Source: Escherichia coli (GTDB lineage Bacteria; Pseudomonadota; Gammaproteobacteria; Enterobacterales; Enterobacteriaceae). From it: DNA of 64,000 bases. The position numbers were made by a program, and so were the translations under genes. The stretch is from NCBI RefSeq assembly GCF_003019035.1, contig NZ_CP027447.1; one strand, given 5' to 3'. Position 1 is the stretch's first letter; each line of letters opens with the position of its first letter. The notes under the pieces are model-generated. The model worked only from the letters and a program-made list of their open reading frames with translations. It was not told the origin of the DNA and searched no databases. Below, one piece after another: positions 3,670 through 44,655 of the stretch.

Positions 3670-4536
3670 TTACTCACCCTGTGGATCATGATATTCAACG
3701 CACGCCTGTAGCGTGTTTTCAATCAGCGTGGCAACCGTCATCGGGCCAACGCCGCCCGGAACAGGCGTAATGTATGAGGCGCGTTTAGCCGCGTCTTCAA
3801 ACACGACGTCGCCCACAACTTTGCCATTTTCCAGACGGTTGATGCCGACATCAATCACAATTGCGCCTTCTTTGATCCAGTCACCAGGAATAAAGCCCGG
3901 CTTGCCGACGGCAACGATCAGTAGATCGGCATTTTCTACGTGGTGACGCAGATTTTTAGTGAAACGGTGAGTCACGGTGGTGGTGCAACCTGCCAGTAGC
4001 AGTTCCATGCTCATCGGGCGGCCAACGATATTCGATGCGCCAATCACCACGGCGTTGAGGCCGAAGGTATCAATGTTGTAACGCTCAAGCAGCGTGACAA
4101 TACCGCGCGGGGTGCAGGGACGCAGACGCGGCGCGCGCTGGCACAGGCGACCGACGTTATAAGGATGGAAACCGTCTACGTCTTTGTCCGGGTGTATACG
4201 TTCCAGCACTTTGACGTTATCAATACCCGCCGGTAACGGCAGTTGAACCAGAATGCCATCAATGGTGTTGTCGGCATTCAGCGTATCGATAAGCTCCAGC
4301 AGCTCCGCTTCGCTGGTGGTTTCCGGGAGGTCATAAGAGCGGGAGACGAACCCGACTTCTTCACAAGCCTTGCGTTTGCTTGCGACATAAATTTGCGATG
4401 CAGGGTTACTACCCACCAGCACAACGGCCAGTCCTGGTGCCCGCAGTCCGGCTGCAATACGCGCCTGAACTTTTTGAGCAACTTCAGAGCGCACCTGCTG
4501 CGCAATCGTTTTACCGTCAATAATCTTTGCTGCCAT
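3670..4536 (-). CDS. folD: bifunctional methylene-THF dehydrogenase / methenyl-THF cyclohydrolase
   Basis: 288-aa [22 protein letters not shown]..., full-length FolD. Confidence 0.96.
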
Positions 4537-5007
4537 CAGAGAGAGGATTCCATCTGTTACGTAGGTCGAAGGGGATGCGCCTATTTTGTCAGAAGCGGGG
4601 CGCGCTGTCAGGTTTCGTTTCAGATTTATCGCGTGAAGCGACCTCTTGCGAAGGTGAGGCGCACCGTCGCTGAGATTGAAAGCTTCATTTTTCGTCCATG
4701 ATGACGTTGTAAATCTGGAACTGATTTATTTCCTTGTCTAAGGATTAAGATAATTTAAGAAATACCTGACAATATAAAAAGAATTTTCAGCCTGGTAATT
4801 TACCGCTTCAGGTCTATATTTGTGTTGAATATATTTTGCGCGGAAATATTCATCTAACGGGGCTCTCTATTTTTTAGAATAGAGTGCATATTTTCAATTA
4901 AGACATTCTTAGAGGATAAAAAGGAATTTTACTACTATCAGTGTCTTAAATAAAGTAATCGGTTATATACGGATGTGGAGTCGATAAATGAGATTGAAGG
5001 AATATAT

Positions 5008-5550
5008 ATGAAATTAAGATTTATTTCGTCTGCGCTGGCCGCCGCACTATTCGCCGCTACGGGTAGTTATGCTGCCGTTGTAGATGGCGGTACAATTCAC
5101 TTTGAAGGCGAACTGGTGAATGCTGCCTGTTCAGTGAATACTGACTCGGCAGACCAGGTTGTCACACTCGGTCAATATCGTACCGATATTTTCAATGCTG
5201 TTGGTAATACCTCTGCATTAATTCCATTCACTATACAGTTGAACGACTGCGATCCTGTCGTTGCCGCTAATGCTGCCGTTGCATTTTCTGGTCAGGCGGA
5301 TGCAATCAATGATAATTTATTGGCCATTGCATCCAGTACTAATACAACAACAGCAACGGGTGTCGGTATTGAAATACTTGATAATACATCCGCAATTCTC
5401 AAACCTGATGGGAATAGCTTCTCAACCAACCAGAACTTGATCCCCGGGACCAACGTTCTTCATTTTTCTGCACGTTATAAAGGCACCGGTACAAGTGCAT
5501 CAGCAGGGCAAGCAAATGCTGACGCGACTTTTATTATGAGATACGAATAA
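5008..5550 (+). CDS. sfmA: type 1-like fimbrial major subunit SfmA
   Basis: 180-aa product with signal peptide [22 protein letters not shown] and fimbrillin C-terminus; start moved to ATG at 5008. Confidence 0.88.
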
Positions 5551-5768
5551 TCAAAACCACGTTGTTTTGAATTATATATCACGTCTTATAACAAAGTAAT
5601 GTACCGGTTGTCTGAAGCGGTATGGTGGCAATGTAAATCGAAATCACGTTCACTTTGTATCATGCCGCTTTATTAAATGAAAAGGGAATGATGTGTGTAA
5701 GAAACCAAAGCAATCATTTCTTTATACTCCTTATTTTTGCCGTCAGGAATACACAAGGCGTATTAACT

Positions 5769-6461
5769 ATGATGACTAAAATAAAGTTATTGATGCTCAT
5801 TATATTTTATTTAATCATTTCGACCAGCGCCCATGCTGCCGGAGGGATCGCATTAGGTGCCACGCGTATTATTTATCCCGCTGATGCTAAACAGACTGCG
5901 GTATGGATTAGAAATAGCCATACCAATGAGCGCTTTCTGGTCAATTCGTGGATTGAAAACAGCAGCGGTGTAAAAGAAAAGTCATTCATCATTACACCGC
6001 CACTGTTTGTTAGTGAACCCAAAAGCGAAAATACTTTGCGTATTATTTACACCGGTCCACCGCTGGCGGCAGATCGTGAGTCTCTGTTCTGGATGAATGT
6101 TAAGACGATCCCTTCGGTAGATAAAAATGCATTGAACGGCAGGAATGTTTTGCAACTGGCGATTTTATCGCGCATGAAATTATTTCTCCGTCCAATTCAA
6201 TTACAAGAATTACCCGCAGAAGCGCCGGACACACTCAAGTTTTCGCGATCCGGTAACTATATCAATGTTCATAATCCATCACCTTTTTATGTCACCCTGG
6301 TTAACTTGCAAGTGGGCAGCCAAAAACTGGGGAATGCTATGGCTGCACCCAGAGTTAATTCACAAATTCCCTTACCCTCAGGAGTGCAGGGAAAGCTGAA
6401 ATTTCAGACCGTTAATGATTATGGTTCAGTAACCCCGGTCAGAGAAGTGAACTTAAACTAA
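5769..6461 (+). CDS. sfmC: periplasmic fimbrial chaperone SfmC
   Basis: 230-aa PapD-like chaperone starting [13 protein letters not shown] with signal peptide; start trimmed from the longer track ORF. Confidence 0.88.
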
Positions 6462-6491
6462 CCGAATCATCTGACAATATCAGAGCTAATT

Positions 6492-9101
6492 ATGAAAATA
6501 CCCACTACTACGGATATTCCGCAGAGGTATACCTGGTGTCTGGCCGGAATTTGTTATTCATCTCTTGCCATTTTACCCTCCTTTTTAAGCTATGCGGAAA
6601 GTTATTTCAACCCGGCATTTTTATTAGAGAATGGCACATCCGTTGCTGATTTATCGCGCTTTGAGAGAGGTAATCATCAACCTGCGGGCGTGTATCGGGT
6701 GGATCTCTGGCGTAATGATGAGTTCATTGGTTCACAGGATATCGTATTTGAATCGACGACAGTAAATACAGGTGATAAATCAGGTGGGTTAATGCCTTGT
6801 TTTAACCAGGCACTCCTTGAACGAATTGGCCTTAATAGCAGTGCATTCCCCGAGTTAGCCCAGCAGCAAAATAATAAATGCATTAATTTACTGAAAGCTG
6901 TACCTGATGCCACAATTAACTTTGATTTTGCAGCGATGCGCCTGAACATCACTATTCCTCAGATAGCGTTGTTGAGTAGCGCTCACGGTTACATTCCGCC
7001 TGAAGAGTGGGATGAAGGTATTCCTGCTTTACTCCTGAATTATAATTTCACCGGTAACAGAGGTAATGGTAACGATAGCTATTTTTTTAGTGAACTCAGC
7101 GGGATTAATATTGGCCCGTGGCGTTTACGCAACAATGGTTCCTGGAACTATTTTCGCGGAAATGGATATCATTCAGAACAGTGGAATAATATTGGCACCT
7201 GGGTACAGCGCGCCATTATTCCGCTGAAAAGTGAACTGGTAATGGGAGACGGTAATACAGGGAGTGATATTTTCGATGGCGTTGGATTTCGAGGTGTACG
7301 GCTTTATTCTTCCGATAATATGTATCCTGATAGCCAGCAGGGGTTTGCTCCAACGGTACGTGGGATTGCCCGTACGGCGGCCCAGCTAACGATTCGGCAA
7401 AATGGTTTTATTATCTATCAAAGCTATGTTTCCCCCGGCGCTTTTGAAATTACAGATTTGCACCCGACATCTTCAAATGGCGATCTGGACGTCACCATCG
7501 ACGAGCGCGATGGTAATCAGCAGAATTACACGATTCCGTATTCAACAGTGCCAATTTTACAACGCGAAGGGCGTTTCAAATTTGACCTGACGGCGGGCGA
7601 TTTTCGTAGCGGTAATAGTCAGCAATCGTCGCCTTTCTTTTTTCAGGGCACGGCACTCGGCGGTTTACCACAGGAATTTACTGCCTACGGCGGGACGCAA
7701 TTATCTGCCAATTACACCGCCTTTTTGTTAGGGCTGGGGCGCAACCTCGGGAACTGGGGCGCAGTGTCGCTGGATGTAACGCATGCGCGCAGTCAGTTAG
7801 CCGACGACAGTCGTCATGAGGGGGATTCCATTCGCTTCCTCTATGCGAAATCAATGAACACTTTCGGCACCAATTTTCAGTTAATGGGTTACCGCTATTC
7901 GACACAAGGTTTTTATACCCTTGATGATGTTGCGTATCGTCGAATGGAGGGGTACGAATATGATTACGATTATGACGGTGAGCATCGCGATGAACCGATA
8001 ATCGTGAATTACCACAATTTACGCTTTAGTCGTAAAGACCGTTTGCAGTTAAATATTTCACAATCACTTAATGACTTTGGCTCGCTTTATATTTCTGGTA
8101 CCCATCAAAAATACTGGAATACTTCGGATTCAGATACCTGGTATCAGGTGGGGTATACCAGCAGCTGGGTTGGCATCAGTTATTCACTCTCATTTTCGTG
8201 GAATGAATCTGTAGGGATCCCCGATAACGAACGTATTGTCGGACTTAATGTTTCAGTGCCTTTCAATGTTCTGACCAAACGTCGCTACACCCGGGAAAAT
8301 GCGCTCGACCGCGCTTATGCCTCCTTTAACGCCAACCGTAACAGCAACGGGCAAAATAGCTGGCTGGCAGGCGTTGGTGGGACCTTACTGGAAGGCCACA
8401 ACCTGAGTTATCACGTAAGCCAGGGCGATACCTCGAATAATGGGTATACGGGCAGCGCCACGGCAAACTGGCAGGCCGCTTACGGTACGCTGGGGGTCGG
8501 GTATAACTACGACCGCGATCAACATGACGTTAACTGGCAGCTGTCTGGCGGTGTGGTCGGGCATGAAAATGGTATAACGCTGAGCCAGCCTTTAGGGGAT
8601 ACCAATGTTTTGATTAAAGCGCCAGGCGCAGGCGGTGTACGCATTGAAAATCAAACTGGAATTTTAACCGACTGGCGCGGCTATGCGGTGATGCCGTATG
8701 CCACGGTTTATCGGTATAACCGTATCGCGCTTGATACCAATACGATGGGGAATTCCATCGATGTTGAAAAAAATATTAGCAGCGTTGTGCCGACGCAAGG
8801 CGCATTGGTTCGTGCCAATTTTGATACCCGCATAGGCGTGCGGGCGCTCATTACCGTTACCCAGGGCGGAAAACCGGTGCCGTTTGGATCACTGGTACGG
8901 GAAAACAGTACCGGAATAACCAGTATGGTGGGTGATGACGGGCAAGTTTATTTAAGCGGTGCGCCATTGTCTGGTGAATTACTGGTTCAGTGGGGAGACG
9001 GCGCGAACTCACGCTGCATTGCGCACTATGTATTGCCGAAGCAAAGCTTACAGCAAGCCGTCACTGTTATTTCGGCAGTTTGCACACATCCTGGCTCATA
9101 A
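6492..9101 (+). CDS. sfmD: fimbrial outer-membrane usher SfmD
   Basis: 869-aa usher-sized ORF in chaperone-usher operon context. Confidence 0.9.
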
Positions 9102-11523: not shown

Positions 11524-11600
11524 GCGCCCTTAGCTCAGTTGGATAGAGCAACGACCTTCTAAGTCGTGGGCCGCAGGTTCGAATCCTGCAGGGCGCGCCA
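11524..11600 (+). tRNA. argU: tRNA-Arg (anticodon UCU)
   Basis: 77-nt sequence GCGCCCTTAGCTCAGTTGGATAGAGCAACGACCTTCTAAGTCGTGGGCCGCAGGTTCGAATCCTGCAGGGCGCGCCA with TCT anticodon loop and encoded CCA end. Confidence 0.95.
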
Positions 11601-18855: not shown

Positions 18856-20160
18856 GGGTAACGCAGGGAAAGATTACGAAAGCCCGCTCCCCGCAAGGAC
18901 TGACGCCAGATAGTTTCTGTCCATGGCTGCTTTTCGCATCTTACGTCTTAACCCTGCCTTGAATACCTTATCATTCGTCAAAATATTAATAGCGATGTGC
19001 CGTATCCCTGAAAATAATTCTGCTGCATTTCCTCTTCTTATTTTGCAGTCGTCTTCATTCATTACCACGTCCAGACGCCAGTGCAGCTTATTCTCCACGT
19101 GCCAGTGGTTTCGGATTGCTGTGGCGAACTTCTCTGCGGTTAAATCAGCAGAACTGATATAATATCTGACCGTCATTTCGGGCTCTTTCTTTTGTTCTGC
19201 TATTATTGACCGAAAGGAGACTGCCACGCATAATTTCTTCAGACCTTTCCATTCAAACGTGAAATCAATAAGTTCATCAGGGACATCGCAAACAATGTGA
19301 AGACGGATTTCTTCTCTGCCGTGACTCTTTTCACTCATTGCGTAACTGTCATGCTCTGGATTATTTAATTCTTTCAGCGGAAATTTTTCCTCGAAGGCTT
19401 TATTTAGCCGCCCCTGGTTTCCTTTTACAGCGAATAAATAATCACCTCCCTGTTTTTGTATCTTCTCTGCAATATCTTTCTGGCAACCCATCGCATCAGT
19501 TGTGATGATTTTTCCTTTAATATCCAGCATGTTAAGAAGTTCTTGGATAGCTGTAATCTCATTGGATTTCTCATCCGTCCTGATCTGTCCGATGACCAGA
19601 CTATGCATTGTTGAGAACGCACTAATGACATGAATCGCTCCCTTGCGGCGACTCTTGTCATAAGAGTGCCGGAGCGTTTTTCCATCAATTGCAATGACGC
19701 CTTTATCATCTGAAGAATGGCAGTCACGCATCCAGTTAATAAAGCACTCGTGAAATTTTGCAGGACTGATACAGGATACAACTCTGGCAATGGTATCGTG
19801 AACAGGAATACCATTTTCAAAATCACCATATTGCTTCAAAAAATCGAGATGTGTTTCCCCAAAATCCTCTATATCTTCCCAGCCTTCTGCACCAGAAATA
19901 ACGGCACAAATAGTCAACAGTAGAATATCCGACAATTTATGTTCCACTTTCCAGGCTTGTCTGTACTCGGGAATAACAGAAATATGTTCTATCAATTTTT
20001 TAAGTACCATTTTGTTCTCCTTAATTATGTAAGGAGTATTTGATCATGTATAAGCAATAAAAAACAGCTTCAGGTAATGAGGAATATCTCAATTTTTAAA
20101 CATAAAATGCGAATTATTTAGTACAAAAAAGCAGCGTTACGTGATCTTTCCCTGTGTAAT
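18856..20160 (-). mobile_element. H-repeat / ISAs1-family insertion sequence (about 1.3 kb)
   Basis: Contains the 378-aa H-repeat-associated transposase; imperfect terminal inverted repeats centred on CAGGGAAAGAT (18861-18878 versus reverse complement of 20139-20156, 15/17 identical); boundaries approximate to about 5 bp. Confidence 0.75.
18874..20010 (-). CDS. ISAs1-family (H-repeat-associated, YhhI-like) transposase
   Basis: 378-aa [53 protein letters not shown]...; near-identical to the recalled E. coli H-rpt protein family. Confidence 0.9.
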
Positions 20161-20834
20161 CCCCCAGCTAAATCATGAACTTTTTGAGCCATTTTACTTA
20201 ATTCAGGGCAGGCTCCTAAACCTAATGGATCTGTGAAGCAACACGGATTCAGCACATAACCATAAGTGTTTAGTCCACCCAATACACCCAGGGGGTCACT
20301 CACCAGATACATCCCGGTCTCCGGCTCGTAGTACCGGAACCGGTTATAGCACAGCCCTGACTCCGCATCCCGCCACTGCCCCGCATACAGCAGACCGGGG
20401 TCCGCTTCTGCGTCTCGCTCCCCGCGCGGGTCCGGGTAGTCCCTGTCTGCGCTGACGCTGAGTGCCAGCCCCCACAGGCTGGTCTGCTCCGCACGCCACA
20501 CCACGTTACCCTGACTGTTAAAGAGCATCACCGGGCGGCCTGTCAGGTCGCTTACCGCATGGCTGGTCCGCGTCACCCACTGCGGGGCCACGGACGGGTG
20601 CGGCTGCCGTACCCGGCTGAACTGCTGGCTTATCAGCTCAAAGCCGTTAAACACCAGGTACCGCACACTGTACAGTTTATCATCGCGGTATTCCCGGATT
20701 TCCGCAATAGTGTCGCCGTCCCACAGATATGTGATGCGGAGGGCTTTTTGTTTGCAGCGTTTCTCTGTCCGTCTGCCACTGGCGTCGTGGCAGTATTCCC
20801 ACTGCTCACCCCGGGCGCTGCGGTAGCCGATCAC
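20118..20834 (-). pseudogene. orphan rhs C-terminal fragment (last about 206 aa of Rhs core plus a truncated alternative tip)
   Basis: Homologous to residues about 1260-1470 of the upstream Rhs through the PxxxxDPxGL core end (DPLGL); no upstream ORF or canonical start; only about 19 native residues follow DPLGL before the reading frame runs into the IS terminal repeat. Confidence 0.7.
20217..20834. repeat. direct repeat copy 1 (rhs core 3' end, orphan copy)
   Basis: About 620 bp, high-identity copy of 21694-22311 visible in both nucleotide and protein alignment. Confidence 0.75.
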
Positions 20835-20863
20835 GGCTGTCGTGGCGGAACTTTATCTCTTTT

Positions 20864-21253
20864 TTATTTAATCCAGTAAGCTAATCTCTCACCAATCTTC
20901 AAATTTTCTCTTTTGTAATAAAATACAGTATCAAAGTTAATGGATATTTTTTTCGCAATAACTTTGAATTTCAATTCAAATTCCGAATAAAACTCTAATA
21001 CTAACATTTCACGAGCATTGTCAGTGCAACTTGATAGCTTAATAAACTCCTCATTAAGATCGCATGACCAGTCCATAACACCGCTAATATAGCATGGCGT
21101 GTCTATTATTATTTCCAGTGTGTGATAGTAAGAAAGGTCATCACTCCCGGAAATAATCAAGCGATTATGTTCATAAAGAAAAACTGAAAAATCCAACCAA
21201 CTTTCTTTCCAATTATGGTGCTTTATATCATTAATTATGTTTTGCTCACTCAT
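20864..21253 (-). CDS. candidate cognate immunity protein for the Rhs C-terminal toxin
   Basis: 129-aa AT-rich ORF; its ATG overlaps the rhs TGA stop in a 4-bp ATGA overlap; positional analogy to rhsI genes; no family recognised from sequence. Confidence 0.6.
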   Translation of the reverse strand: MSEQNIINDIKHHNWKESWLDFSVFLYEHNRLIISGSDDLSYYHTLEIIIDTPCYISGVMDWSCDLNEEFIKLSSCTDNAREMLVLEFYSEFELKFKVIAKKISINFDTVFYYKRENLKIGERLAYWIK

Positions 21254-24200
21254 GGAATAGTTCCTGTAGGCAATGGTATATGAGTATCATTTGCAGCTCC
21301 TGGATTATAATTCGGACTTTTAGTTTTCAAATCAGATGTATGATGCCAACTGCCATCAGGAGAACCATACTCCCAACCATAGCCTTGATTAGTCGCAGGA
21401 TTTGTTCCACTTTGGCTTCTACCAATCCTATATATGGGGCCATTGGCAGAATTACTCCCTGCTGGAGCAGTAGGGTTTACATCATGAGCCCTTACTTCAT
21501 ATTTATAATTTCCGACGGTGAATTTTTCTTTAAATTTTATAGGGTAGTTATGCCCAGACAAGCCTTGCCGATGTAAAGCATAATTTAACACATCCTGCGG
21601 TGAGGTATTTTTAATTGCTTGATGCGCTTGTGCTGCTGTCATACCTTGAGAACGATTGTATTTATACCAATCATACATCACAGGACATATAGCTAATCCC
21701 AAAGGATCAACATACCCCAGCGGATTAGGCACATACCGGTAAGTCTGCTCACCCCCCAGCAACCCCAGTGGATCACTCACCAGGTACATCCCGGTTTCCG
21801 GCTCGTAATACCGGAACCGGTTATAGCACAGCCCCGATTCCGCATCCTGCCACTGCCCCGCATACAGCAGGCCGGGGTCGGCTTCCGGGTCCAGCTCCCC
21901 GCGCGGGTCCGGGTAGCCGGTGTCTGCGGGCAGGCTGAGTGCCAGCCCCCACAGGCTGGTCTGCCCCGGTCGCCAGACGGTTTTACCTTCACTGTTAAAG
22001 AGCACCAGCGGACGGCCCGTCAGGTCGCTCACCGCATGATTCGTTCGCGTCACCCACTGCGGGGCCACGGACGGATGCGGCTGCCGTACCCGGCTGAACT
22101 GCTGACTCAGCAGCTCAAAGCCGTTAAACACCAGGTGCCGTACGCTGTACAGTTTATCATCCCGGTATTCCCGCATTTCCGCAATACTGTCGCCGTCCCA
22201 CAGATACGTAAAACGGATTTTCTTCCGGTCGCAGCGTTTTTCCGTCCGCCTGCCGCTGGCGTCGTGGCGGTATTCCCACTGCTCACCCTGTGCGCTGCAA
22301 TACCCGGTCAGCTGGTCCCGGCTGTCCCACCGGAACCGCTCTGTTTCCGGGCGGTAGCCGTCACGGTGTCTGGTGCGGCTGACCATCCGGCCTGCGGCGT
22401 CATAGCTGTAGTCTGTGTTTCCGGTCTGTTTCAGCCGGTGGCCGCGCTGATACATGTCAGTATCCACGCTTATCCGGTGCCTGCCCGCCGACTGCGCCTT
22501 CAGGTAGCCACAACTGTCATAGCCATAGGACTCATCGCCTTCGCCATAGCCCAGCCCGGTGCCTGAGGCTGTCACCGCCGTGACCTGGCCGTTCCGGTCC
22601 AGCCGGTACTCCCGCCGTGTTTCCCGTCCGTAGTCTTCCCGGCTGGTGACAGCCGACATATTGCCCGCGCTGTCGTAACGGTACTCCCGCACCAGTGAGG
22701 GGAGCAGTCCGCCCCATGTGGCTTCCGCCGGGAAAAGTCCGGCGCGCTGGCTGGTAAGCTGACCGGCTGCATTCCAGCCCTGCTCACAGGCAAAACCCCG
22801 GTTACTGTGCCGGAGCACTTCACGTCCTGCCTCATCACGGCTGAACGTCAGCGTCTCATCCCCCGGCAGGATAACCTCCGTCAGTTCTCCGGCGGCGTTG
22901 TAGCGGTAGGTGGTTTTCAGCAGGGATTCACCGGGGTGTCTGTCGCGTTCATCTTCCGGTGGCAGGATACAGCGGATGACGGTGTGTTCATCGGGGTGGT
23001 GGTATTCAATGGCCCGTCGGCCCTGAGTGGTGACATTCACCCGCCCGCGTTCGTCATAGCCGGTGCGCTGTGATGTACCGTCCGGGCTGAAGATACCCGT
23101 CAGCCTGCCGGATTTGTCATAGGCATACTGCGTTTTGCCTTCCGGCGAGATGACTTCTGCCAGGCGGCCTGCGGCGTCCCGGCTGTAGAGGATAGTTTCC
23201 TCCAGGCCGTTAACCCTGGCGGTACAAAGGCCATCGGCGTCATAGCGGTAACGCCAGACCACGCCGCCCCAGTCACGCTCTTCCGTCACCCGTCCACAGT
23301 TGTCCAGAATATAACGGTATGACTCGCCCTGCGGATTGATGACTTCTGTCAGTTGCAGCGTGTCTTTATCGTAGCGGTACTGCCAGCGGTGGCCTTCACC
23401 GTCCGTTCGCGCCACCGGCAAATCGAACGGGCCGTATTCCATCGTCCAGACAACGCCGTTGCCGTCCGTCCAGGCCAGCAGGTTGCCGTGGCGGTCATAG
23501 CGAAATCCTTCCGCGCCGGTGCCAGTGCGTTCAAGGCCGCTCAGTTTATGGTGCTGCTGCCACCGTAACCGCACTGACTGACCGCCGGGGCCGCGCATCT
23601 TCACCGGCAGGTCGTGACCGCTGTATTCGGTGTGGTGTTCACGGCCCATCACGTCGGTGAGTGTTTCCGGCCGGTTGTGGTGGTCGTACTCTATGCCCAG
23701 ACGCCGTTCATCCTGGCGGAATATCCCCGACAGCAGCCCCTGCGGCGTGTACGCCAGCCGGGTCTCTTCGCCCTGTGGCGACACCAGACTTACCGGCAGG
23801 CCGCGTTCATCACACTGCTGCGTCCACATCTGCCCGGCAGGGTCGGTGATGTTGCTGAGCAGGCCGCGCTCATCATAGCAGTACTGCCACTCCGCACCGT
23901 CTGCCGCCGTGTAACGGCTTAACTGACCGTGTGCGGCGTTGTATTCAAACTTCTCCACCCGCCCGGCAGGGGAGTGGCGGGCCAGCAGGTGATGGAATTC
24001 ATCCCATTCATACATGGTGGTGCTGCCGTCCGGCGCTGCTTCCCGCAGAATATTGCCGTCAGGATCATAGTAATAACGGTGAATGCCCTTGCCGTCCGTC
24101 ACGGTGGTGCAGCCGTCACCATAGTCCAGCGTGGCGTTGTAATAGCCCTCCGCCCCGGTGACGGTCACGCACCGGCCCTGTGCATCGTAGGTGAAACGGC

Positions 24201-26103
24201 TCCACGTCTGGTCGTTATCGGACCAGCGGATGATCCGGTCCGCAGCGTCGTACTCATAAAACAGGTGGTAGTCCAGCCGCGCATCCGCTTCTGTCAGCCG
24301 CCCCCGCGCATCCTGTTCGTAGGTCGCCAGCATCTGTATGCCGTTATCCGTACGGTGAATGGCTTTCAGGTAGCCGCTGGCATGGTACGTCAGTTTAAGC
24401 CGGATCCCGTCGGTGTGACTGACACCCATGATGCGGTACTGGCTGTCGCGCTCAAACGTGATGCGGTTGCTGGCGGTGTCGCTCATCCCGCCCAGCATGT
24501 ACATCCGGTCTGCGGGGCTGTGTGCCAGACGGTCATCGCAGGTATCGTCAGTCACCGGGTGGCGCAGGCGCATTCCCGGAAAGGCGTCATAAAAGAAGCG
24601 GCTGCTCAGTGCATCACGGTCGAACAGCTCCAGGTAATCGTCGCGGCGGCGCAGAATGTACTGGGCGTGATACGGGTTAACCGCCGTATCACTGTCACCG
24701 TCGAAGGCAAATCTCAGCGTGGTTCCCTGGCTGATGATATCCACCCGGTTTCCCTGTTCACGCACCCAGGCGTATTCGCTCCAGGAGTCGCTCCAGCCCA
24801 CGCCCGTCAGACCATGCAGCGGCAGTACAGAACTGTGGAAACGGGTGAAGGAGAGGGGGAGTGTCTGGCCCAGCGTAAAGTCGGTACGTTCGTCGCAGTA
24901 TGCGCCGGTTACCGGATCGACAGGATCTGTTACCCATCTGATGACTTTATTGGCAATACTTTTTAACGACTTACCTGTTTTCCCCAGCAACGCGCCGAGC
25001 TTTGCCCCCAGCAGCTTCCCGCTTTTCCCCAGCAGGTTTCCCAGTTTGCCGAGTTTCGCCAGATTCCCCAGTTTTCCCAGCAGTCCCGCGGGCGGCAGAA
25101 GATAGCTGGCTATCGTTATTCCCCCCAGGATCATTCTCTGCCACGGCGGGAACTCCGGCTGGATATCCAGATAGGTCACCTGTTCACCGCCAATAAAGAC
25201 GTCCGGCGAACCTTCCACGATTGCCGCGCTGCACTCCAGTTTGTCCCCTTTGCGTGCGGCAGTCTGATTGTTGATAAAGACGTTGCTGCTGCCCTGGGCT
25301 ATCCTCGGTGGTTTGTTCTCCTTGTCGCAGAGCGCCGTGTCCTCACCGGCTTCCGGGAAATCCACGTCTTTTTTGATTTCGCCACGCCCGCCCACCATGG
25401 TGGCAAACTCCATTAATACCGGACCGGCGGGAAACAGAAGCGATGCGCCGGCGCTGACGCGATCCATAATACCGGCATTGCTGTCCGTCAGGGTGATAAC
25501 AGCGTTCCCCCAGGCCTTCGCCAGTGGTACTGCTTTTTCCGCTGCCGATTCAAGCAGGTCAGTGGCAATATCACCCCATGAGGGTTCCCCCTGTGGTGGA
25601 GAGGGTATTGCTTCAGTCAGGGGAGGAGGGGGAAGGGTGACGGCGGCCCTGGCAGCGGGCTTTCCGTTAATGTTTACATTTTTAGAACCAGTATTGATGG
25701 CCCCGTCCGTGTCACAAAAACTGTTTATCCATGATTCAAGCTGGTTCTGTTTCTCCTCCACATAATCACTCGCCTTATAGCTGGCATACATCAGCGCAGG
25801 CACCAGAACCAGCGCATAAGGGCCGGTGGCACAGGCGGCCATAATCAGGCAACCTTCTGCGATGGTCACTATCGCCCCCAGCACGGCCCCTGCCAGCGCC
25901 CCCAAAAAACTCTTGTGCTGAATTTCATCGCCCAGCCTGGCTGCGGGGGGGCCAGACTTTTTTGATGCCAACATCTGTGCAATGGCTTTGTCGTTGGCTG
26001 CCCGTTTCATCTGGCTGGCGACCATCGCCTGCTGTGACAGCATTCGCATTGCCAGCGTACCGCCTGCGGTCGCTCCCTGTGGCCCGCCTGGTCCTTCACT
26101 CAT
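21250..26103 (-). CDS. rhs: prePAAR/PAAR-domain Rhs-family polymorphic toxin (T6SS effector) with variable C-terminal toxin tip
   Basis: 1617-aa ORF: N-terminal AARLGDEIQH (prePAAR-like AARxxDxxxH), hydrophobic helices, PAAR-like segment (ARKGDKLECSAAIVEGSPDVFIGG), long YD/Rhs repeat region, core terminating at DPLGL, then a 147-aa low-GC tip. Confidence 0.9.
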   Translation of the reverse strand: MSEGPGGPQGATAGGTLAMRMLSQQAMVASQMKRAANDKAIAQMLASKKSGPPAARLGDEIQHKSFLGALAGAVLGAIVTIAEGCLIMAACATGPYALVLVPALMYASYKASDYVEEKQNQLESWINSFCDTDGAINTGSKNVNINGKPAARAAVTLPPPPLTEAIPSPPQGEPSWGDIATDLLESAAEKAVPLAKAWGNAVITLTDSNAGIMDRVSAGASLLFPAGPVLMEFATMVGGRGEIKKDVDFPEAGEDTALCDKENKPPRIAQGSSNVFINNQTAARKGDKLECSAAIVEGSPDVFIGGEQVTYLDIQPEFPPWQRMILGGITIASYLLPPAGLLGKLGNLAKLGKLGNLLGKSGKLLGAKLGALLGKTGKSLKSIANKVIRWVTDPVDPVTGAYCDERTDFTLGQTLPLSFTRFHSSVLPLHGLTGVGWSDSWSEYAWVREQGNRVDIISQGTTLRFAFDGDSDTAVNPYHAQYILRRRDDYLELFDRDALSSRFFYDAFPGMRLRHPVTDDTCDDRLAHSPADRMYMLGGMSDTASNRITFERDSQYRIMGVSHTDGIRLKLTYHASGYLKAIHRTDNGIQMLATYEQDARGRLTEADARLDYHLFYEYDAADRIIRWSDNDQTWSRFTYDAQGRCVTVTGAEGYYNATLDYGDGCTTVTDGKGIHRYYYDPDGNILREAAPDGSTTMYEWDEFHHLLARHSPAGRVEKFEYNAAHGQLSRYTAADGAEWQYCYDERGLLSNITDPAGQMWTQQCDERGLPVSLVSPQGEETRLAYTPQGLLSGIFRQDERRLGIEYDHHNRPETLTDVMGREHHTEYSGHDLPVKMRGPGGQSVRLRWQQHHKLSGLERTGTGAEGFRYDRHGNLLAWTDGNGVVWTMEYGPFDLPVARTDGEGHRWQYRYDKDTLQLTEVINPQGESYRYILDNCGRVTEERDWGGVVWRYRYDADGLCTARVNGLEETILYSRDAAGRLAEVISPEGKTQYAYDKSGRLTGIFSPDGTSQRTGYDERGRVNVTTQGRRAIEYHHPDEHTVIRCILPPEDERDRHPGESLLKTTYRYNAAGELTEVILPGDETLTFSRDEAGREVLRHSNRGFACEQGWNAAGQLTSQRAGLFPAEATWGGLLPSLVREYRYDSAGNMSAVTSREDYGRETRREYRLDRNGQVTAVTASGTGLGYGEGDESYGYDSCGYLKAQSAGRHRISVDTDMYQRGHRLKQTGNTDYSYDAAGRMVSRTRHRDGYRPETERFRWDSRDQLTGYCSAQGEQWEYRHDASGRRTEKRCDRKKIRFTYLWDGDSIAEMREYRDDKLYSVRHLVFNGFELLSQQFSRVRQPHPSVAPQWVTRTNHAVSDLTGRPLVLFNSEGKTVWRPGQTSLWGLALSLPADTGYPDPRGELDPEADPGLLYAGQWQDAESGLCYNRFRYYEPETGMYLVSDPLGLLGGEQTYRYVPNPLGYVDPLGLAICPVMYDWYKYNRSQGMTAAQAHQAIKNTSPQDVLNYALHRQGLSGHNYPIKFKEKFTVGNYKYEVRAHDVNPTAPAGSNSANGPIYRIGRSQSGTNPATNQGYGWEYGSPDGSWHHTSDLKTKSPNYNPGAANDTHIPLPTGTIP
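21253..21693 (-). other. Rhs C-terminal toxin domain (147 aa after DPLGL); candidate WHH/HNH-type nuclease
   Basis: Abrupt drop in GC content after the DPLGL junction; motif GSWHHTSD...NYNPGAAN...THIP near the C-terminus resembles the His-His...Asn...His arrangement of HNH/EndoVII-fold toxin domains. Confidence 0.45.
21694..22311. repeat. direct repeat copy 2 (rhs core 3' end, main gene)
   Basis: Homologous to 20217-20834; substrate for homologous recombination that would swap toxin tips. Confidence 0.75.
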
Positions 26104-26122
26104 GTGTTATCCCTCGTTTATG

Positions 26123-26584
26123 TCAGCGCGGCTGGTCCTTTTGGATGTCATTCTCCGGTGGCAACGGGGTGAAGCTCTTTATCACCTCCAGCAGCATCGT
26201 CTTTTGACTGTTCTTCAGGGATAAGGAGGTGCTGAAAGTGAAGGTCAGCAGCGTATCTCCACGCCGCTGGAATACGGCTATCTGGCTAATCCGCCCCTGA
26301 TTCCCTTCATCTTCCGGACCGTTCCAGGAATAATCCAGCAGCCAGGCCGGGGCCTCTGCCAGAGTGATTTCCCGGCAGGCATGTTCGGTGTACCCATCAA
26401 GTTTGCCCTGGTACAGCGCCAGCGTTTCCTGGTACAGCTCTGGTGTCAGGGTTCCCTGTGGAACGGCTTCGCGGGTAATGACCAGGTTGATGCCACTGTT
26501 ATCTGTGGACACCAGGACCTGCATTGACTGATCCTGCCATTGAGACGGCAGTTGAATGTGGCCTTCATTAAAAGTGAACTGCAT
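26123..26584 (-). CDS. DUF1795 / Eag-family effector-associated chaperone
   Basis: 153-aa ORF between vgrG and the prePAAR-Rhs gene, tightly spaced; size and position typical of EagR-type chaperones. Confidence 0.75.
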   Translation of the reverse strand: MQFTFNEGHIQLPSQWQDQSMQVLVSTDNSGINLVITREAVPQGTLTPELYQETLALYQGKLDGYTEHACREITLAEAPAWLLDYSWNGPEDEGNQGRISQIAVFQRRGDTLLTFTFSTSLSLKNSQKTMLLEVIKSFTPLPPENDIQKDQPR

Positions 26585-26611
26585 AAAATACTCCCTGTTA
26601 ATCTGAGTGAA

Positions 26612-28513
26612 TCAGTTGATGAAAACAGAACCGCCCACGATGGTGATGCCATCCTTCGACAGCCTGATTACCGTCGATTCCCCGACCTGTAGCTGTATGC
26701 CATCCGGCGTCAGCGCAATTTTGCTTTCCTCCACGGCCAGCAAAATTTCCTTAATCGCCGTATAAGCCTGTATACCGTCGCCTTCGCCACCATTGTTTAC
26801 AGCGTCAACATGCACCGAACCGGCAATCGTGCCTCTGTCCTGAAAGACATCCTCAGATAAAGACCCTTTCAGTACTCCGGTGATCTTGTGGCCTTTTTCC
26901 ACCGTAAGAAGGCGGTTACCTTCCTGGATCGTGACCGTCTGGTCATTTTTTACGGTTTCGCGGTGATCGTGTTTTACGGTGGTGGTACGGTCGTTGAGCA
27001 CTTCGGTATCCATGTTCTTCTGCGCGTGGATGTAGACCTGTTCTCTCCCTGTCGCATCATCAAACTTCAGCTCATTAAATCCGCTGCCCATGTACGTTTT
27101 GGAGCGGATGGTCATCTGCGTCTTTGTTCCCGGCAGGCTGCCGGGGGTGCGGTTTTCCTGGTGGTAGGTGCGCCCCATAATGATCGGCTGGTCCGGATCG
27201 CCGTTGAGGAAGTCTACAATCACTTCCTGACCCACACGCGGTATCGCCAGGTGGCCAAAACCGGTGCCTGCCCACGCCTGTGCCACACGGATCCAGCACG
27301 AACTGTCTTGGTCTGCCGGGTTATAACGGTCCCAGTTGAACTTCACCCGCACGCGACCATGTTCGTCGCAGAAGATTTCCTCGCCTGCCGGTCCTGTCAC
27401 GACAGCGCTCTGCGGGCCGTCGACCAGCGGTTTCAGCAACGGCTGTGGTCGCCATGTTCTGTCTGCCGGGATCACCGCAAAATGGTTCTCCAGCGCCGTC
27501 CCCGCTCCCTGCCGTCCTGGCACCGCCTGTGGCTGTTCGCCGTGCAGTTCACTTGCCACCACCTGCCATTCCCGGTTCAGGTTCGCCTGCGGATGCCCCG
27601 TCAGCACAATTCGTCGTCCCGGCCATATCTCCGGCGAGCGACTCATTCCCCGCGCGGTTTCTGCATTGTTTCGCCAGCCGTCCATCTGCCAGCGGGCAAA
27701 GTTCTGCCCGTGGGCACCCTTGAAACGTCCGGGGTAGTCATACACTTCATACTGCGTGCGCTGGTAGTCCTGGTGCTGGCCTTCCTGTTCAAAACGTCCG
27801 GCCCAGCCGGGGCGTTTAAAGGTGTAGTCTTTGGTCACCACGGAAGAAGGGCGGATTTGTGCGCTGTAGCGGAACTGGCTGATGCAGAGGGTGCTCACCT
27901 CGGTACGGGTGTTCGGGTTCCATGGGATTTCAAAAGATTCGGGCAGATGGCGGACTGTGTCGCACAGCACCAGGCTCTGGTCGGTACTTTTGTAAGCATG
28001 CTCCTCATAAAAGAAGATGCCTTCCTCCGCCGCCATCCGGCACAGGAAATCGTAATCAGTCTCACCGTACTGGACACAAAACTCACGGGAAGGATGCGGC
28101 TCGCTGAACAGCGGACTCCATTCGGTCACCCCGTTTTCCTGCAACATCGTGCCGAGGATGCTTTTGATGTCCTCGTTCTGGAAGATACGGAAGTTCTGGC
28201 GCAGACCGGCACGCCACAGCGGCGGGTGCACCTTCATGCTGTACAGCATCTGGTTTTTGTCGTTCTCCCCCAGTTCAAACCAGGTCACCACGCCTTTCAC
28301 CCGGCGCTGTACTTCATCGCCCTGCCATATCGTCAGGTAGGCCATTTTGTCCAGCACCTGCGCAAATTCAAGGGAGAGAAACTGCTGGCTGACCAGGGAG
28401 AGATCGAGGGAAAAGAGCGAAGAGAGTGACTGGTTCAGATGAAAGGAAACCACCGCAAAAGCATCCGGCGGCAGGCCGTCCACTTCCAGTGTGAAACGTA
28501 ATCCGGTTGACAT
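26612..28513 (-). CDS. vgrG: type VI secretion spike protein VgrG
   Basis: 633-aa ORF starting MSTGLRFTLEVDGLPPDAF... with gp27/gp5-like regions and a C-terminal beta-helix-like segment; canonical VgrG N-terminus. Confidence 0.9.
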   Translation of the reverse strand: MSTGLRFTLEVDGLPPDAFAVVSFHLNQSLSSLFSLDLSLVSQQFLSLEFAQVLDKMAYLTIWQGDEVQRRVKGVVTWFELGENDKNQMLYSMKVHPPLWRAGLRQNFRIFQNEDIKSILGTMLQENGVTEWSPLFSEPHPSREFCVQYGETDYDFLCRMAAEEGIFFYEEHAYKSTDQSLVLCDTVRHLPESFEIPWNPNTRTEVSTLCISQFRYSAQIRPSSVVTKDYTFKRPGWAGRFEQEGQHQDYQRTQYEVYDYPGRFKGAHGQNFARWQMDGWRNNAETARGMSRSPEIWPGRRIVLTGHPQANLNREWQVVASELHGEQPQAVPGRQGAGTALENHFAVIPADRTWRPQPLLKPLVDGPQSAVVTGPAGEEIFCDEHGRVRVKFNWDRYNPADQDSSCWIRVAQAWAGTGFGHLAIPRVGQEVIVDFLNGDPDQPIIMGRTYHQENRTPGSLPGTKTQMTIRSKTYMGSGFNELKFDDATGREQVYIHAQKNMDTEVLNDRTTTVKHDHRETVKNDQTVTIQEGNRLLTVEKGHKITGVLKGSLSEDVFQDRGTIAGSVHVDAVNNGGEGDGIQAYTAIKEILLAVEESKIALTPDGIQLQVGESTVIRLSKDGITIVGGSVFIN

Positions 28514-42053: not shown

Positions 42054-43181
<1,128 letters not shown>

Positions 43182-43623
43182 TTATGTTGGCGTTTTCTAT
43201 TCAGTATAGAAGTGGGAGCGACTGGGCGAGATGCGGAAGTTCTGGAATATTTCTTTTTTTGGTGATGGTGAACTGATTGTGAGTGAAGCAATTTAGCTAC
43301 TTTTTCAATGTGGCAAGTTATGGCACAGCTGGCTGGTGGCGAAGAATTTTGACGATTGAGGCATGCAGAAAAAACGGGCTCAGCTTCAGTTGATCAAATG
43401 GGGAGTGAGAAGTCCGAAACAGGATTCACTGTATAAATAAACAGCTATTTTGCTGAGGAAGCGTAAGATAACGGCGGGTGCCTGAAGCTTTCCGGTTTCA
43501 GGTTAACTCTGAGGTCTGGAAAGATGAAGCCCCAGGACGATATTTCTATCAACCCTGGGGCTGCCACTCCAAACCCGAACAATTTGGATGGTAGTCCCTT
43601 CTTCGCATGGAGGCAATATAAAC

Positions 43624-43776
43624 ATGCTGACGAAATATGCCCTTGTGGCAGTCATAGTGCTGTGTTTAACGGTGCTGGGATTTACGCTTCTGGTCGGCGA
43701 CTCGCTGTGTGAGTTTACGGTGAAGGAACGTAATATTGAGTTTAAGGCTGTTCTCGCTTACGAACCGAAGAAGTAG
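43624..43776 (+). CDS. hokE: Hok-family type I toxin HokE
   Basis: 50-aa product [50 protein letters not shown]; an overlapping upstream frame (43524..43712) is consistent with a mok-like leader ORF. Confidence 0.85.
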
Positions 43777-43897
43777 CCGTTGTGCGGGGAGCAATCCCCG
43801 CATATCCGGTTGTCAGGTCAGGATGGTAAGGCACCTGCTTTACACTTTCGCCCGTGGTCAGTGATGGCTGCGGGCGAATCGTACCAGATGTTGTCAA

Positions 43898-44518
43898 TTA
43901 ATCGTGTTGGCACAGCGTTATGACTATTTTTTCTTTTATCTGCCAGTGCACAGCAAACTGCTCATCCTCTAGTCGAATGATGATCTGCTGTTTATTCCAG
44001 CTAATTATCTGATAATCCAGAAAACCTTGAGCGGCCTGTATCTTGCTTGCCTTAAATGCGCTTTCTTTGGCGGAAAATGCCAGTGTCAGCGCCAGAGAAA
44101 AGGTTAAACCGCATTCTGCGAGTCGCTCGTGTTCTGCTGGTGTAATAATGTTGTCTGTCAATTCTCTTGCGGTTTGTACAGAGAAAATCTCTTCGATATC
44201 AATGCCAATCGGTTGACGAGATACCACGGCTAATGCCGTAGTCCCACAGTGACTAATGCTGCCGTATACCCCCGCAGGCCACACAGGTTGGCGTAGCTCG
44301 CCGATTGCGGGCACACATTTATAGCCATATTCCCGCAGCGCATAAACTGCAGCGATCCGTCCGGCTAAATGCTCTGTTTTACGTTTACGTCCAGCGTGTT
44401 GCAGTTGCGCGTAGTGTGGCAGCCAGAGTAAATCCTGCTCACAAAAACTCGCCGGATCAAACTCAACAAAATGCAGCGTATGTCCTACAAAGGGGAGGGC
44501 GGTATGCGTAGTTTTCAT
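43898..44518 (-). CDS. entD: enterobactin synthase phosphopantetheinyl transferase EntD
   Basis: 206-aa product from MKTTHTALPFVGHTLHFVEF...; an alternative upstream ATG (MVDM) lies at 44527. Confidence 0.88.
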   Translation of the reverse strand: MKTTHTALPFVGHTLHFVEFDPASFCEQDLLWLPHYAQLQHAGRKRKTEHLAGRIAAVYALREYGYKCVPAIGELRQPVWPAGVYGSISHCGTTALAVVSRQPIGIDIEEIFSVQTARELTDNIITPAEHERLAECGLTFSLALTLAFSAKESAFKASKIQAAQGFLDYQIISWNKQQIIIRLEDEQFAVHWQIKEKIVITLCQHD

Positions 44519-44555: not shown

Positions 44556-44655
44556 GCCTGATGCGCTACGCTTATCAGGCCTACGTGGTCCTGCAATATA
44601 TTGAATTGGCAAGATTTTTGTAGGCCGGATAAGGCGTTCACGCCGCATCCGGCGT
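44556..44655. repeat. REP/BIME element (two inverted REP units) between entD and fepA
   Basis: gcctgatgcgctacgcttatcaggcctac and gtaggccggataaggcgttcacgccgcatccggc, canonical REP palindromes. Confidence 0.8.

Follow-up and report, generated by a model that had tools for sequence, protein, structure and literature searches.

The hokE/sokE locus of an Escherichia coli chromosome in its ordinary, IS186-free state

The paradigm of the type I toxin-antitoxin systems considered here is hok/sok (parB) of plasmid R1, and the regulatory model of hok/sok used below is taken from PMC9841398. R1 and hokE both encode a toxin of the Hok family and share an mRNA of about 400 nt that folds back on itself via the tac and fbi elements (as predicted for hokE), a metastable 5' hairpin, a Sok-target hairpin, the same Rfam leader model, a sok promoter that overlaps the hok translation start region (putative in hokE), and a GC-rich hairpin in the 3'-UTR that is followed by fbi and then by a terminal hairpin. 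Unlike its plasmid counterpart, hokE is chromosomal, is preceded by a LexA box, shows no mok start within the Sok-target hairpin loop, and encodes Cys46 as Tyr (UAC), so that RNA editing is needed to obtain the cysteine; the two toxins are some 35-40% identical, as judged by eye from the alignment. In the hokC (gef)/mokC/sokC and hokB/mokB/sokB systems of K-12, the leader, which starts with GGGUGC(C/U)UGAG, has the same architecture as that of hokE, and hokB also shares the GGGUGCC/GGCACCC fold-back pair. These systems, however, occupy other chromosomal sites, their toxins have diverged from HokE, and in each an annotated mok begins within the 5' end of Sok, its first 9-11 nt forming the overlap, whereas hokE has no such mok.

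The hokE/sokE genes of K-12 MG1655 (b4415/b4835) represent the same locus at the same ybdK-hokE-entD position. In K-12, hokA, hokC and hokE are inactivated by IS elements (PMC12214031; PMC7232551). A tandem duplication of hokE has been reported as well (PMC7232551): in the hok-2.1/hok-2.2 pair of AIEC NRG857c and in O157:H7, each copy is a complete unit that corresponds approximately to positions 43409-43877 of the DNA analyzed here and possesses its own LexA box, promoter, leader, coding sequence, fbi and terminal hairpin. The IS inactivation in K-12, the existence of IS-free loci in wild strains, SOS control, HokE toxicity and RNA editing are all on record, and the locus described below is real but not new.

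The window, that is, the whole 64,000-nt stretch of E. coli DNA under analysis, is 100% identical to E. coli FDAARGOS_497 and shows the gene order ybdK-hokE-entD-fepA. With high confidence, the region between ybdK and entD (Table 1) can be assigned to the chromosomal hokE/sokE type I toxin-antitoxin locus, uninterrupted and present in a single copy, unlike the tandem pairs. The 50-aa Hok-family reading frame that had been noticed there in the original prediction matches the Pfam family HOK_GEF (PF01848) over residues 5-46 with 34 bits (cut-off 22), and the RefSeq entry for the identical protein is HokE (WP_000956465.1), a membrane toxin; the NCBIfam HokA and Hok-family models also match, with scores (49 and 40) that stay under the curated thresholds (89 and 73, respectively). 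The equally accurate claim that no IS follows the gene is borne out by the 725-bp ybdK-entD spacer, which is collinear with that of IS-free genomes.

Table 1. Positions of genes, RNA elements and putative signals of the hokE/sokE locus in the window
Feature	Position	Strand	Details
ybdK	42054-43172	-	flanking gene
LexA (SOS) box CTGTATAAATAAACAG	43429-43444	.	overlaps -35 region of hokE promoter
putative hokE -10 hexamer TAAGAT	43464-43469	+	by eye, by analogy with R1 (TATGAT-6 nt-GGCGCUU)
inferred full-length hokE mRNA, ~403 nt	43476-43878	+	ends placed by Rfam match, homology and hairpin
tac element GGGUGCCU	43476-43483	+	5' partner of fold-back helix
5' stem-loop CUUUCCGGUUUCAGG / CUGAGGUCUGGAAAG	43488-43523	+	15 pairs, 100% paired in 12 alleles
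inferred SokE antisense RNA, 60 nt	43521-43580	-	5' end 43580; homology to K-12 sokE
upstream ORF, 62 aa in window allele	43524-43712	+	from ORF list; frame differs from hok
alternative hairpin GGGGCUGCCACUCCAAA...UUUGGAUGGUAGUCCC	43557-43598	+	homologous to R1 mok-SD/dcb hairpin
putative sokE promoter	43588-43616	-	-35 TTGCCT (43616->43611), 17-nt spacer, -10 TACCAT (43593->43588)
hok Shine-Dalgarno GGAGG	43609-43613	+	upstream of hokE CDS
hokE CDS, 50 aa + stop	43624-43776	+	ORF list, Pfam, RefSeq
UACG at Tyr46	43759-43762	+	reported TadA A-to-I editing site (Tyr to Cys); from sequence, invariant in 12 alleles
3'-UTR hairpin GCGGGGA-GCAA-UCCCCGC	43784-43801	+	8 nt after hokE stop codon
fbi element AGGCACCU	43829-43836	+	3' partner of tac
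terminal hairpin of hokE mRNA	43847-43878	+	-24.4 kcal/mol, z = -5.7; 20 nt from entD stop
entD	43898-44518	-	flanking gene

The window differs from K-12 in the 3'-UTR. In MG1655, IS186B (608007-609351), the insertion that the original prediction had correctly mentioned, starts 19 bp after the hokE stop codon, inside the 3'-UTR hairpin, and is flanked by a 12-bp duplication, GGGAGTAATCCC, which in the window is the single segment 43787-43798. The fbi element of K-12 is thereby displaced by 1.3 kb, that is, IS186 cuts it away from the toxin gene. In the window, the hairpin stands uninterrupted, exactly where it had been placed, and folds with -18.5 kcal/mol (z = -5.2; none of 200 shuffled sequences folds as well). 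The IS186 target, reportedly described by SaiSree et al. 2001, has the consensus G>=4 N3-6 C>=4, and about 10-12 bp of it are duplicated when the element inserts; the window carries such G- and C-runs around a short spacer, GGGG-AGCAAT-CCCC, at 43786-43799. Homologous GC-rich hairpins follow the stop codon also in R1, hokB and hokC, and in K-12 the homologous G4-N6-C4 hairpin of hokC carries IS186A at the same place. Upstream of the IS, the two alleles are 95.8% identical over 619 bp (window 43180-43798). They share the LexA box, promoter region, leader, SokE region, hok Shine-Dalgarno sequence, UACG editing site, fbi and terminal hairpin; apart from the insertion, they differ in the loop of the 3'-UTR hairpin (GCAA in the window, GUAA in K-12), in an extra C at 43538 of the window that takes the upstream ORF out of the hok reading frame, and in residue 8 of HokE (Val8 in the window, Ala8 in K-12), the only difference between the proteins.

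A strong GC-rich stem-loop only 8 nt after a stop codon could be taken for an intrinsic terminator of hokE and nothing else, with the sequence beyond it being unrelated spacer. This possibility is very remote: no U-run follows the hairpin and the terminator scan is negative; fbi, which pairs with the 5' end of the mRNA, lies 28 nt further downstream and is followed by a second, stronger hairpin; the unit that is duplicated in tandem extends to 43877; and R1 and hokB display the same internal hairpin, and then fbi. The terminal hairpin, in which one pair varies between C-G, U-G and U-A across alleles, is likewise without a following U-run in the window allele, and there, too, the terminator scan was negative, whereas in the tandem loci the terminal hairpin of the first copy is followed by a U-rich run.

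How common is the uninterrupted state? The 3'-UTR site of hokE is uninterrupted in 3,646 of 5,426 complete E. coli genomes (~67%), and the K-12 IS186 junction is found in 1,742 (32%). About a fifth of the complete genomes appear to be single-copy and intact like the window, and nearly half appear to have two copies; both fractions are approximate, being derived from copy counts of the segment that contains the coding sequence. A count of tandem duplications by junction queries was dropped, as it joined out-of-order pieces of single-copy loci, and two further matches of the genome scan were set aside, a short, partial hokE-like fragment in Marinobacter and a chance 20-mer in Paenibacillus. Thus, the hokE locus of the window is in its ordinary wild-type state, lacking the IS186 of the laboratory strain; to be intact is the usual condition of hokE, already described and found in approximately two thirds of complete E. 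coli genomes, and there is nothing special to the window in this respect. For discovery as such, the locus adds little, its features being published. Since only about a third of the complete genomes contain the IS186 junction, K-12 is an atypical reference for hokE, so that an IS-free allele should be used in functional studies, be it of persistence, of TadA editing or of membrane damage triggered by the SOS response.

Homology to R1 hok/sok, together with the literature, suggests how the uninterrupted locus may be regulated. The predicted LexA box overlaps the promoter, 19 nt upstream of the putative -10 hexamer, an arrangement that conforms to the sequence signature of the LexA regulon. The pattern CTGT-N8-ACAG has its sole match in the 64-kb window here, with 0.53 matches expected by chance, so that the pattern alone says little; the 16-mer, however, is identical in 11 of 12 Escherichia alleles, and the single substitution in the twelfth preserves CTG-N10-CAG. 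In addition, hokE has been listed among the SOS-induced toxin genes (PMC11951105; PMC8406316). LexA would repress the hokE promoter via this box, and DNA damage would induce transcription. The putative -10 hexamer ends 6 nt before the inferred 5' end of the mRNA at 43476. A scan of 43170-43950 for consensus promoters and terminators found nothing; with agreement at 8 of 12 consensus positions, the promoters proposed for hok and sok fall below the scan threshold, so that both assignments derive from homology only.

The 5' end of the hokE mRNA was set by the start of the match to Rfam RF01794 and by homology to R1, hokB and hokC, and its 3' end was set at the terminal hairpin, which is also the end of the unit in tandem duplicates. 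The leader matches RF01794 ("sok") over its full length (model positions 1-157, window 43476-43632 on the plus strand) with 79.4 bits (gathering score 59; E = 1e-17); a match to the Rfam family mir-1990 was rejected as chance (20.6 bits vs 63). The inferred mRNA is predicted to fold with a minimum free energy (MFE) of -170 kcal/mol (z = -6.43), a stability attained by none of 100 shuffled sequences. The MFE and the centroid folds both contain an 8-bp helix between tac and fbi (43476-83 with 43829-36); it is 100% paired in all 12 alleles, which come from five or more Escherichia species; with respect to R1, 5 of 7 positions differ in a compensatory way, both sides of the helix having changed. 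The comparison with characterized hok/sok loci that had been suggested located fbi and sok promoter-like hexamers, the predicted tac/fbi pairing being kept in the alleles, and the expectation that the regulatory elements may be intact holds for all those that can be examined in the sequence, namely the fold-back, the leader, the SokE region, the hok Shine-Dalgarno sequence and the 3'-UTR hairpin. By analogy with R1, the full-length mRNA would be translationally inert owing to the fold-back, and slow trimming of the 3' end would remove fbi, upon which the leader would refold. In the MFE folds of 3'-truncated hokE mRNAs, no R1-like tac/ucb refolding that frees a Shine-Dalgarno sequence was seen.

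Within the leader, the 5' stem-loop (43488-43523) is predicted to sequester the GAGG Shine-Dalgarno sequence of the AUG at +49; its 5' arm can instead pair with tac, yielding a metastable hairpin (43480-43503), and the nascent 30-nt leader folds with -13 kcal/mol. The hairpin 43557-43598, to whose loop the SokE 5' tail is predicted to bind, forms in nascent folds (to 43600 and to 43630) as well as in the fold truncated at 43805, and competes with a hairpin at 43528-43562, the two being mutually exclusive in the leader. It is 99% paired in the 12 alleles. At two pairs both partners have changed, from A-U to G-C, and the covariation score of the hairpin was reached by none of 500 shuffles. For the whole MFE structure of the 12 alleles, covariation does not exceed the shuffle controls; because these sequences are 97% identical, the covariation support for most helices is weak.

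The antisense RNA had originally been expected near 43480-43560, and in this point the prediction has to be corrected: collinear alignment maps K-12 sokE (b4835, 607733-607792, minus strand) to 43521-43580, so that the predicted SokE lies approximately 30 nt further downstream. In the predicted fold of SokE (-25.4 kcal/mol, z = -3.2), the 5' tail is left unpaired, over 10 nt in the MFE structure and 14 nt in the centroid, and the rest forms a GC-rich hairpin that resembles a terminator; this hairpin, like the promoter hexamers, is highly conserved. Its putative promoter has the same layout as the sok promoter of R1 (TTGCGC-17-TATCCT), and nucleotides 111-148 of the mRNA, which span this promoter, make up the least variable segment, with one variable column out of 38. 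The SokE RNA of about 60 nt (43580->43521) would pair by its 5' tail with the loop of the hairpin 43557-43598 and thus lead to decay; when SokE is insufficient, HokE would be translated and would depolarize the inner membrane.

The remaining claim, that a mok-like frame overlaps hokE from upstream, holds only in part: the ORF 43524-43712 on the plus strand does exist, but it shares no homology with mok in R1, hokB or hokC, and different alleles carry it in different frames relative to hok. Where these three systems have GAGGC-N6-9-AUG, hokE has GGGGCUGCCACUCC, so that no start codon is found at the position homologous to their mok starts. This lack of a canonical mok start applies to hokE generally, K-12 included. 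Could the ORF nevertheless be a genuine mok ("mokE") that is controlled by SokE and drives hokE translation as in R1? Its AUG and well-spaced GAGG Shine-Dalgarno sequence are conserved in all 12 alleles, this Shine-Dalgarno sequence is predicted to be sequestered in the conserved 5' stem whose 5' arm can alternatively pair with tac, the region complementary to SokE (43521-43580) includes the AUG, and, in the window, the ORF reads through the hok translation start. We nevertheless consider this reading doubtful. The position that corresponds to the R1, hokB and hokC mok starts is some 50-60 nt downstream of this AUG, which sits at the 3' end, rather than the 5' end, of the Sok-complementary region; indels among the 12 alleles place the ORF in frame 0, +1 or -1 relative to hok, and in 4 of the 12 it stops 29 nt before the hok AUG; one of the two frame-setting indels, the additional C at 43538, divides the E. 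coli genomes roughly in half (it is present in at least 2,430 of 5,426); no mok is annotated at this locus in K-12; and a protein-family search with the ORF gave no match. Because its start differs from the mok of R1, hokB and hokC and its frame varies between alleles, the ORF is unlikely to be a conserved protein.

An intact hokE sequence would not by itself mean an active killer system, and the locus might be structurally complete yet functionally attenuated. It would then be a relic, domesticated or in decay, without killing activity in nature: a canonical mok for translational coupling would be lacking, the toxin would require Tyr46-to-Cys editing for full activity, and control by Sok would be redundant. 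The absence of an AUG at the mok-start position and the unconstrained frame of the upstream ORF speak for such attenuation, as does the fact that a third of the genomes tolerate IS186 in the locus. Furthermore, in the statement of Pedersen & Gerdes as quoted in bioRxiv 10.1101/2025.08.07.668861, IS-free chromosomal hokA and hokC, as well as K-12 hokB, gave no post-segregational killing or rifampicin response, and deletion of hokE together with five other SOS toxin genes in K-12 resulted in no persistence phenotype (PMC8406316). The K-12 phenotype data, however, derive from the IS-disrupted allele. Moreover, the noncoding leader (outside the loop) is more conserved across Escherichia species than the coding sequence (pi = 0.022 vs 0.040), the hokE ORF is intact in all 12 alleles, the segment 43600-43780 that contains it is kept in 5,374 of 5,426 E. 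coli genomes (99%), often in duplicate, and the HokE coding sequence is toxic when expressed (bioRxiv 10.1101/2025.08.07.668861). On balance, attenuation appears to be a possible but not a favored interpretation of what, in our preferred reading, is simply the uninterrupted wild-type locus. As to editing, a level of 40% for hokE and the relation to Cys46 have been reported (PMC12214031), and the potency of HokE may be tuned by TadA, although folding of the sequence around UACG did not support a local TadA-type hairpin (z = 0.3).

A more speculative proposal, to which we would assign a rather low probability, is that hokE has replaced the canonical mok with another arrangement, and that the Sok-hok recognition loop (43571-43585) is under diversifying change. 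Repression by the own cognate antisense RNA has been shown for the Sib/Ibs systems; should the proposal be true, each hokE/sokE copy, including the tandem duplicates, would likewise be mainly under its own SokE. A small follow-up on the regulation of chromosomal hok loci could start from the lack of a canonical mok, from the upstream ORF with its variable frame, and from the hypervariability of the recognition loop.

The evidence behind this proposal starts from an observation that is new to us: variation between alleles clusters in the loop predicted to be recognized by Sok, with an approximately 10-fold excess over 43571-43585. The loop differs in every tandem pair examined, and it is mainly there that tandem copies differ from each other, while the flanking stem shows compensatory changes. 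The loop variants of hokE/SokE include CCCGAACAA, CCAGACAA, CCUCAACAAC and GCCCCAACAAC.

The 50-aa open reading frame between ybdK and entD, which the original prediction had placed in the Hok family, is hokE, as judged from the gene order, a profile match to Pfam HOK_GEF (34 bits; gathering score, 22) and its RefSeq entry, WP_000956465.1, which is named 'type I toxin-antitoxin system toxin HokE'. Across the 771-nt query, E. coli FDAARGOS_497 is 100% identical to the window.

Features of the hokE/sokE locus and its flanks (window coordinates)
Feature	Position	Strand	Remarks
ybdK	42054-43172	-	GCS2 family; one flank of hokE
LexA box CTGTATAAATAAACAG	43429-43444		pattern search; sole such match in the window
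Putative hokE -10, TAAGAT	43464-43469	+	promoter candidate
hok leader	43476-43632	+	Rfam RF01794, whole model, 79.4 bits (gathering score, 59)
tac GGGUGCCU paired with fbi AGGCACCU	43476-43483 with 43829-43836	+	predicted; MFE and centroid structures alike
Upstream ORF AUG	43524	+	hokE-specific; GAGG Shine-Dalgarno 9 nt upstream
Two overlapping leader hairpins	43528-43562; 43557-43598	+	predicted folds
Predicted SokE	43580 to 43521	-	K-12 sokE placed by collinear alignment
Putative sokE promoter	upstream of 43580	-	TTGCCT, 17 nt, TACCAT, then 7 nt to start; by eye
hok Shine-Dalgarno GGAGG	43609-43613	+	predicted to pair with 3' end of coding region in full-length fold
hokE CDS	43624-43776	+	ATG start, 50 codons
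UACG at Tyr46	43759-43762	+	present in window sequence; reported TadA editing site
3'-UTR hairpin	43784-43801	+	GCGGGGA 43784-43790, loop GCAA, TCCCCGC 43795-43801
Terminal hairpin	43847-43878	+	strong, z = -5.7; closes the hokE unit
entD	43898-44518	-	other flank of hokE; fepA-fes-entF beyond

The hairpin that follows the stop codon lies exactly where it had been predicted and, at -18.5 kcal/mol (z = -5.2), is much stabler than shuffled sequence. The presence of an IS186 downstream of hokE in K-12, as the original prediction stated, is borne out by the MG1655 annotation, which lists sokE (607733-607792, minus strand), hokE (607836-607988) and IS186B (608007-609351), then entD, and by the junctions themselves, which read GTGCGGGGAGTAATCCC before the element and GGGAGTAATCCCCGCATATCC after it. 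The duplication is of 12 bp, equivalent to window positions 43787-43798; therefore, the K-12 element sits in the loop of this hairpin, shifting fbi 1.3 kb away. At hokC, IS186A occupies an equal relative place in the homologous downstream hairpin (GGCGGGGAGTGATCCC, then the element). The hairpin has the form GGGG-N6-CCCC and thus fits the IS186 target, a G-run, a spacer and a C-run, that SaiSree et al. are said to have described in 2001. We considered whether the hairpin is a mere terminator and rejected this reading because fbi and a second hairpin lie downstream, the unit that is duplicated in tandem runs on to 43877, and the same internal hairpin is shared by hokB and by plasmid R1, the source of the paradigm hok/sok system.

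The window itself is free of insertion sequences at this locus, as had been noted: from ybdK to entD, the entire spacer aligns collinearly with that of other IS-free genomes. The segment 43600-43780, which holds the hokE CDS, was found in 5,374 of 5,426 complete E. coli genomes (7,981 places; median, 1), 43700-43880, with the hairpin and fbi, was uninterrupted in one copy or more in 3,646 (67%), and the K-12 type hokE::IS186 junction occurred in 1,742 (32%). Thus, the absence of the element is ordinary, and IS-free hokE is the majority state in E. coli. Many genomes, e.g. O157:H7, carry two full hokE units in tandem, a duplication reported for AIEC NRG857c (PMC7232551). Because the query for tandem junctions joined pieces that were separate, and so was confounded, the copy split was taken from the segment counts; from these summary counts, we estimate that somewhat under half of the genomes have a second copy and that roughly one fifth share the single-copy, uninterrupted state of the window. 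The duplicated unit, common in E. coli, spans about 470-500 bp from the LexA box to the terminal hairpin; the O157:H7 tandem occupies positions 1716-2690 of its locus (L002), and further tandems were seen at loci L010, L013 and L014. E. whittamii and one other Escherichia species have the duplication too. The terminal hairpin of first tandem copies is followed by a U-rich run, TTTCGTTTT; the window allele has no such run.

The suggestion that the regulatory elements may be intact is consistent with the sequence, where leader, predicted fold-back, SokE region, LexA box and terminal hairpin were all found, the matching Rfam model comprising both the hok mRNA leader and the Sok region. The predicted fold of 43476-43882 has a free energy of -170 kcal/mol (z = -6.43) and brings tac and fbi together. 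The R1-type hok mRNA, folded likewise, pairs GGCGCUU with AAGCGCC, such that 5 of 7 positions of the helix are changed on both sides, which, on the predicted structures, is classical tac/fbi covariation; the corresponding pair in hokB is GGGUGCC and GGCACCC. The nascent 5' end of the hokE mRNA is predicted to form a hairpin (GCCUGAAGCU/GGUUUCAGGU) resembling the metastable hairpin of R1, and the R1 mok-SD/dcb hairpin (GAGGCAUCC...GGAUAGCCUC) has its homologue in the leader hairpin at 43557-43598. Among 12 Escherichia alleles, this leader hairpin is 99% paired, with A-U to G-C double changes in two pairs, and its covariation score was reached by none of 500 shuffles; the low divergence of these alleles places most helices beyond covariation testing. 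The LexA box and the -35 region of the putative hokE promoter overlap, which fits the SOS induction published for hokE (PMC11951105, PMC8406316).

In its predicted fold, SokE leaves a 5' tail unpaired (10 nt in the MFE structure) and has a GC-rich hairpin plus a U-rich tail. Its putative promoter has the same layout as that of R1 sok (TTGCGC-17-TATCCT). The sokE and hokE promoters were assigned by eye and fall below the 9 of 12 matches required by our consensus scan, which reported none of the proposed promoters. RefSeq/PGAP annotates a pseudogene, 'hypothetical protein' with an internal stop or frameshift, antisense to the hokE leader (43386-43655, minus strand) in FDAARGOS_497, K-12 RP437 and O157; the annotation probably reflects a spurious ORF family that overlaps sokE.

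An overlapping upstream frame does exist (43524-43712, plus strand), but the original description of it as mok-like needs correction: its start is not at the mok position, and its frame varies. The mok frames of R1, hokB and hokC begin at GAGGC-N6-9-AUG within the Sok-target hairpin, and their first 9-11 nt overlap the Sok 5' end, whereas hokE has at this position GGGGCUGCCACUCC, without a start codon, in K-12 and the window alike, and AUG 43524 lies at the other end of the region complementary to Sok. This AUG is invariant among the 12 alleles and the frame is altered by indels: the ORF is in frame with hok in 7 alleles, yielding an 83-aa fusion, stops short of the hok AUG by 29 nt in 4, and gives an out-of-frame 62-aa product in the window alone. 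Owing to an extra C at 43538, found in at least 2,430 of the 5,426 genomes, and a 1-nt loop indel, each of the three possible frames relative to hok is taken by the ORF in one allele or another; 472 genomes have a 78-nt leader segment identical to that of the window. Profile searches with the product gave no protein family match. Our conclusion is that the ORF exists as a codon string without being a conserved protein; any effect that it has would come from translation itself.

A 20-mer scan of species-representative genomes found hokE units in E. albertii, E. whittamii (two copies), two further Escherichia species and one E. coli representative. On a short, low-coverage contig (L009, 2.3 kb) filed as Marinobacter sp. 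B9-2, the 3' half of hokE is joined to unrelated sequence; contamination from Escherichia or a chimeric assembly is the probable cause. Over the 403-nt mRNA, the 12 alleles are 97% identical; the Hok ORF is unbroken in all of them, nucleotide diversity (pi) is 0.022 in the non-coding leader minus one loop vs 0.040 in the CDS, and in the nearly invariant segment that spans the sok promoter and the start of hok translation, 1 of 38 columns varies. This conservation argues against a decaying relic. The variation gathers at the top of hairpin 43557-43598 and in its loop: the loop at 43571-43585 (mRNA nt 96-110), complementary to the predicted SokE 5' tail, has a pi of 0.229, about 10 times that of the rest of the leader. 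The two copies of each tandem pair examined differ in this loop, a hint of possible cognate specificity in Sok/hok recognition.

Of the readings considered, the standard hok/sok mechanism (summarized in PMC9841398), with a promoter under SOS control, is the best supported. The full-length mRNA would be folded and inert until activated by 3' trimming; SokE would pair with the leader hairpin loop, leading to mRNA decay, and, without its action, HokE would be made and damage the membrane. The anatomy of the locus can be read in the window; the dynamic steps are all inferred from R1 hok/sok and the literature. The main rival is that a locus complete in sequence nevertheless does no killing in nature: a quotation of Pedersen and Gerdes in bioRxiv 10.1101/2025.08.07.668861 describes other IS-free chromosomal hok loci without post-segregational killing, and K-12 deleted for hokE and five further SOS toxin genes showed no persistence phenotype (PMC8406316), although that result comes from a disrupted hokE allele. 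HokE toxicity (bioRxiv 10.1101/2025.08.07.668861), TadA editing at Tyr46 (PMC12214031), and the locus, its interruption by IS186 in K-12 and the IS-free copies of natural isolates (PMC7232551, PMC12214031) have all been published; therefore, the original finding is correct but already known. We could not find a published description of the variation in loop 43571-43585, the loop differences within tandem pairs or the frame-variable upstream ORF, which we regard as modest leads rather than discoveries.

Elsewhere, the window begins within a lambdoid prophage tail region (1-8627; gpJ, a Lom-family gene and tail-fibre genes, some of them annotated as pseudogenes), with appY-ompT-envY downstream. 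Between ompT and envY, Rfam (72 bits) and ARAGORN identify a tRNA-Arg(TCT) (11524-11600, plus strand) that is absent from the feature table for that stretch of the FDAARGOS_497 record. A type VI secretion effector island between nfrB and cusS (18866-28505) comprises an ISAs1-family transposase, an Rhs fragment, a full Rhs core protein and genes for VgrG and a DcrB-related product. In the entD-fepA spacer (44577-44618, minus strand), a match to Rfam ES036 (CssrF; 42 bits) coincides with the REP-like palindrome gcctgatgcgctacgcttatcaggcctac.
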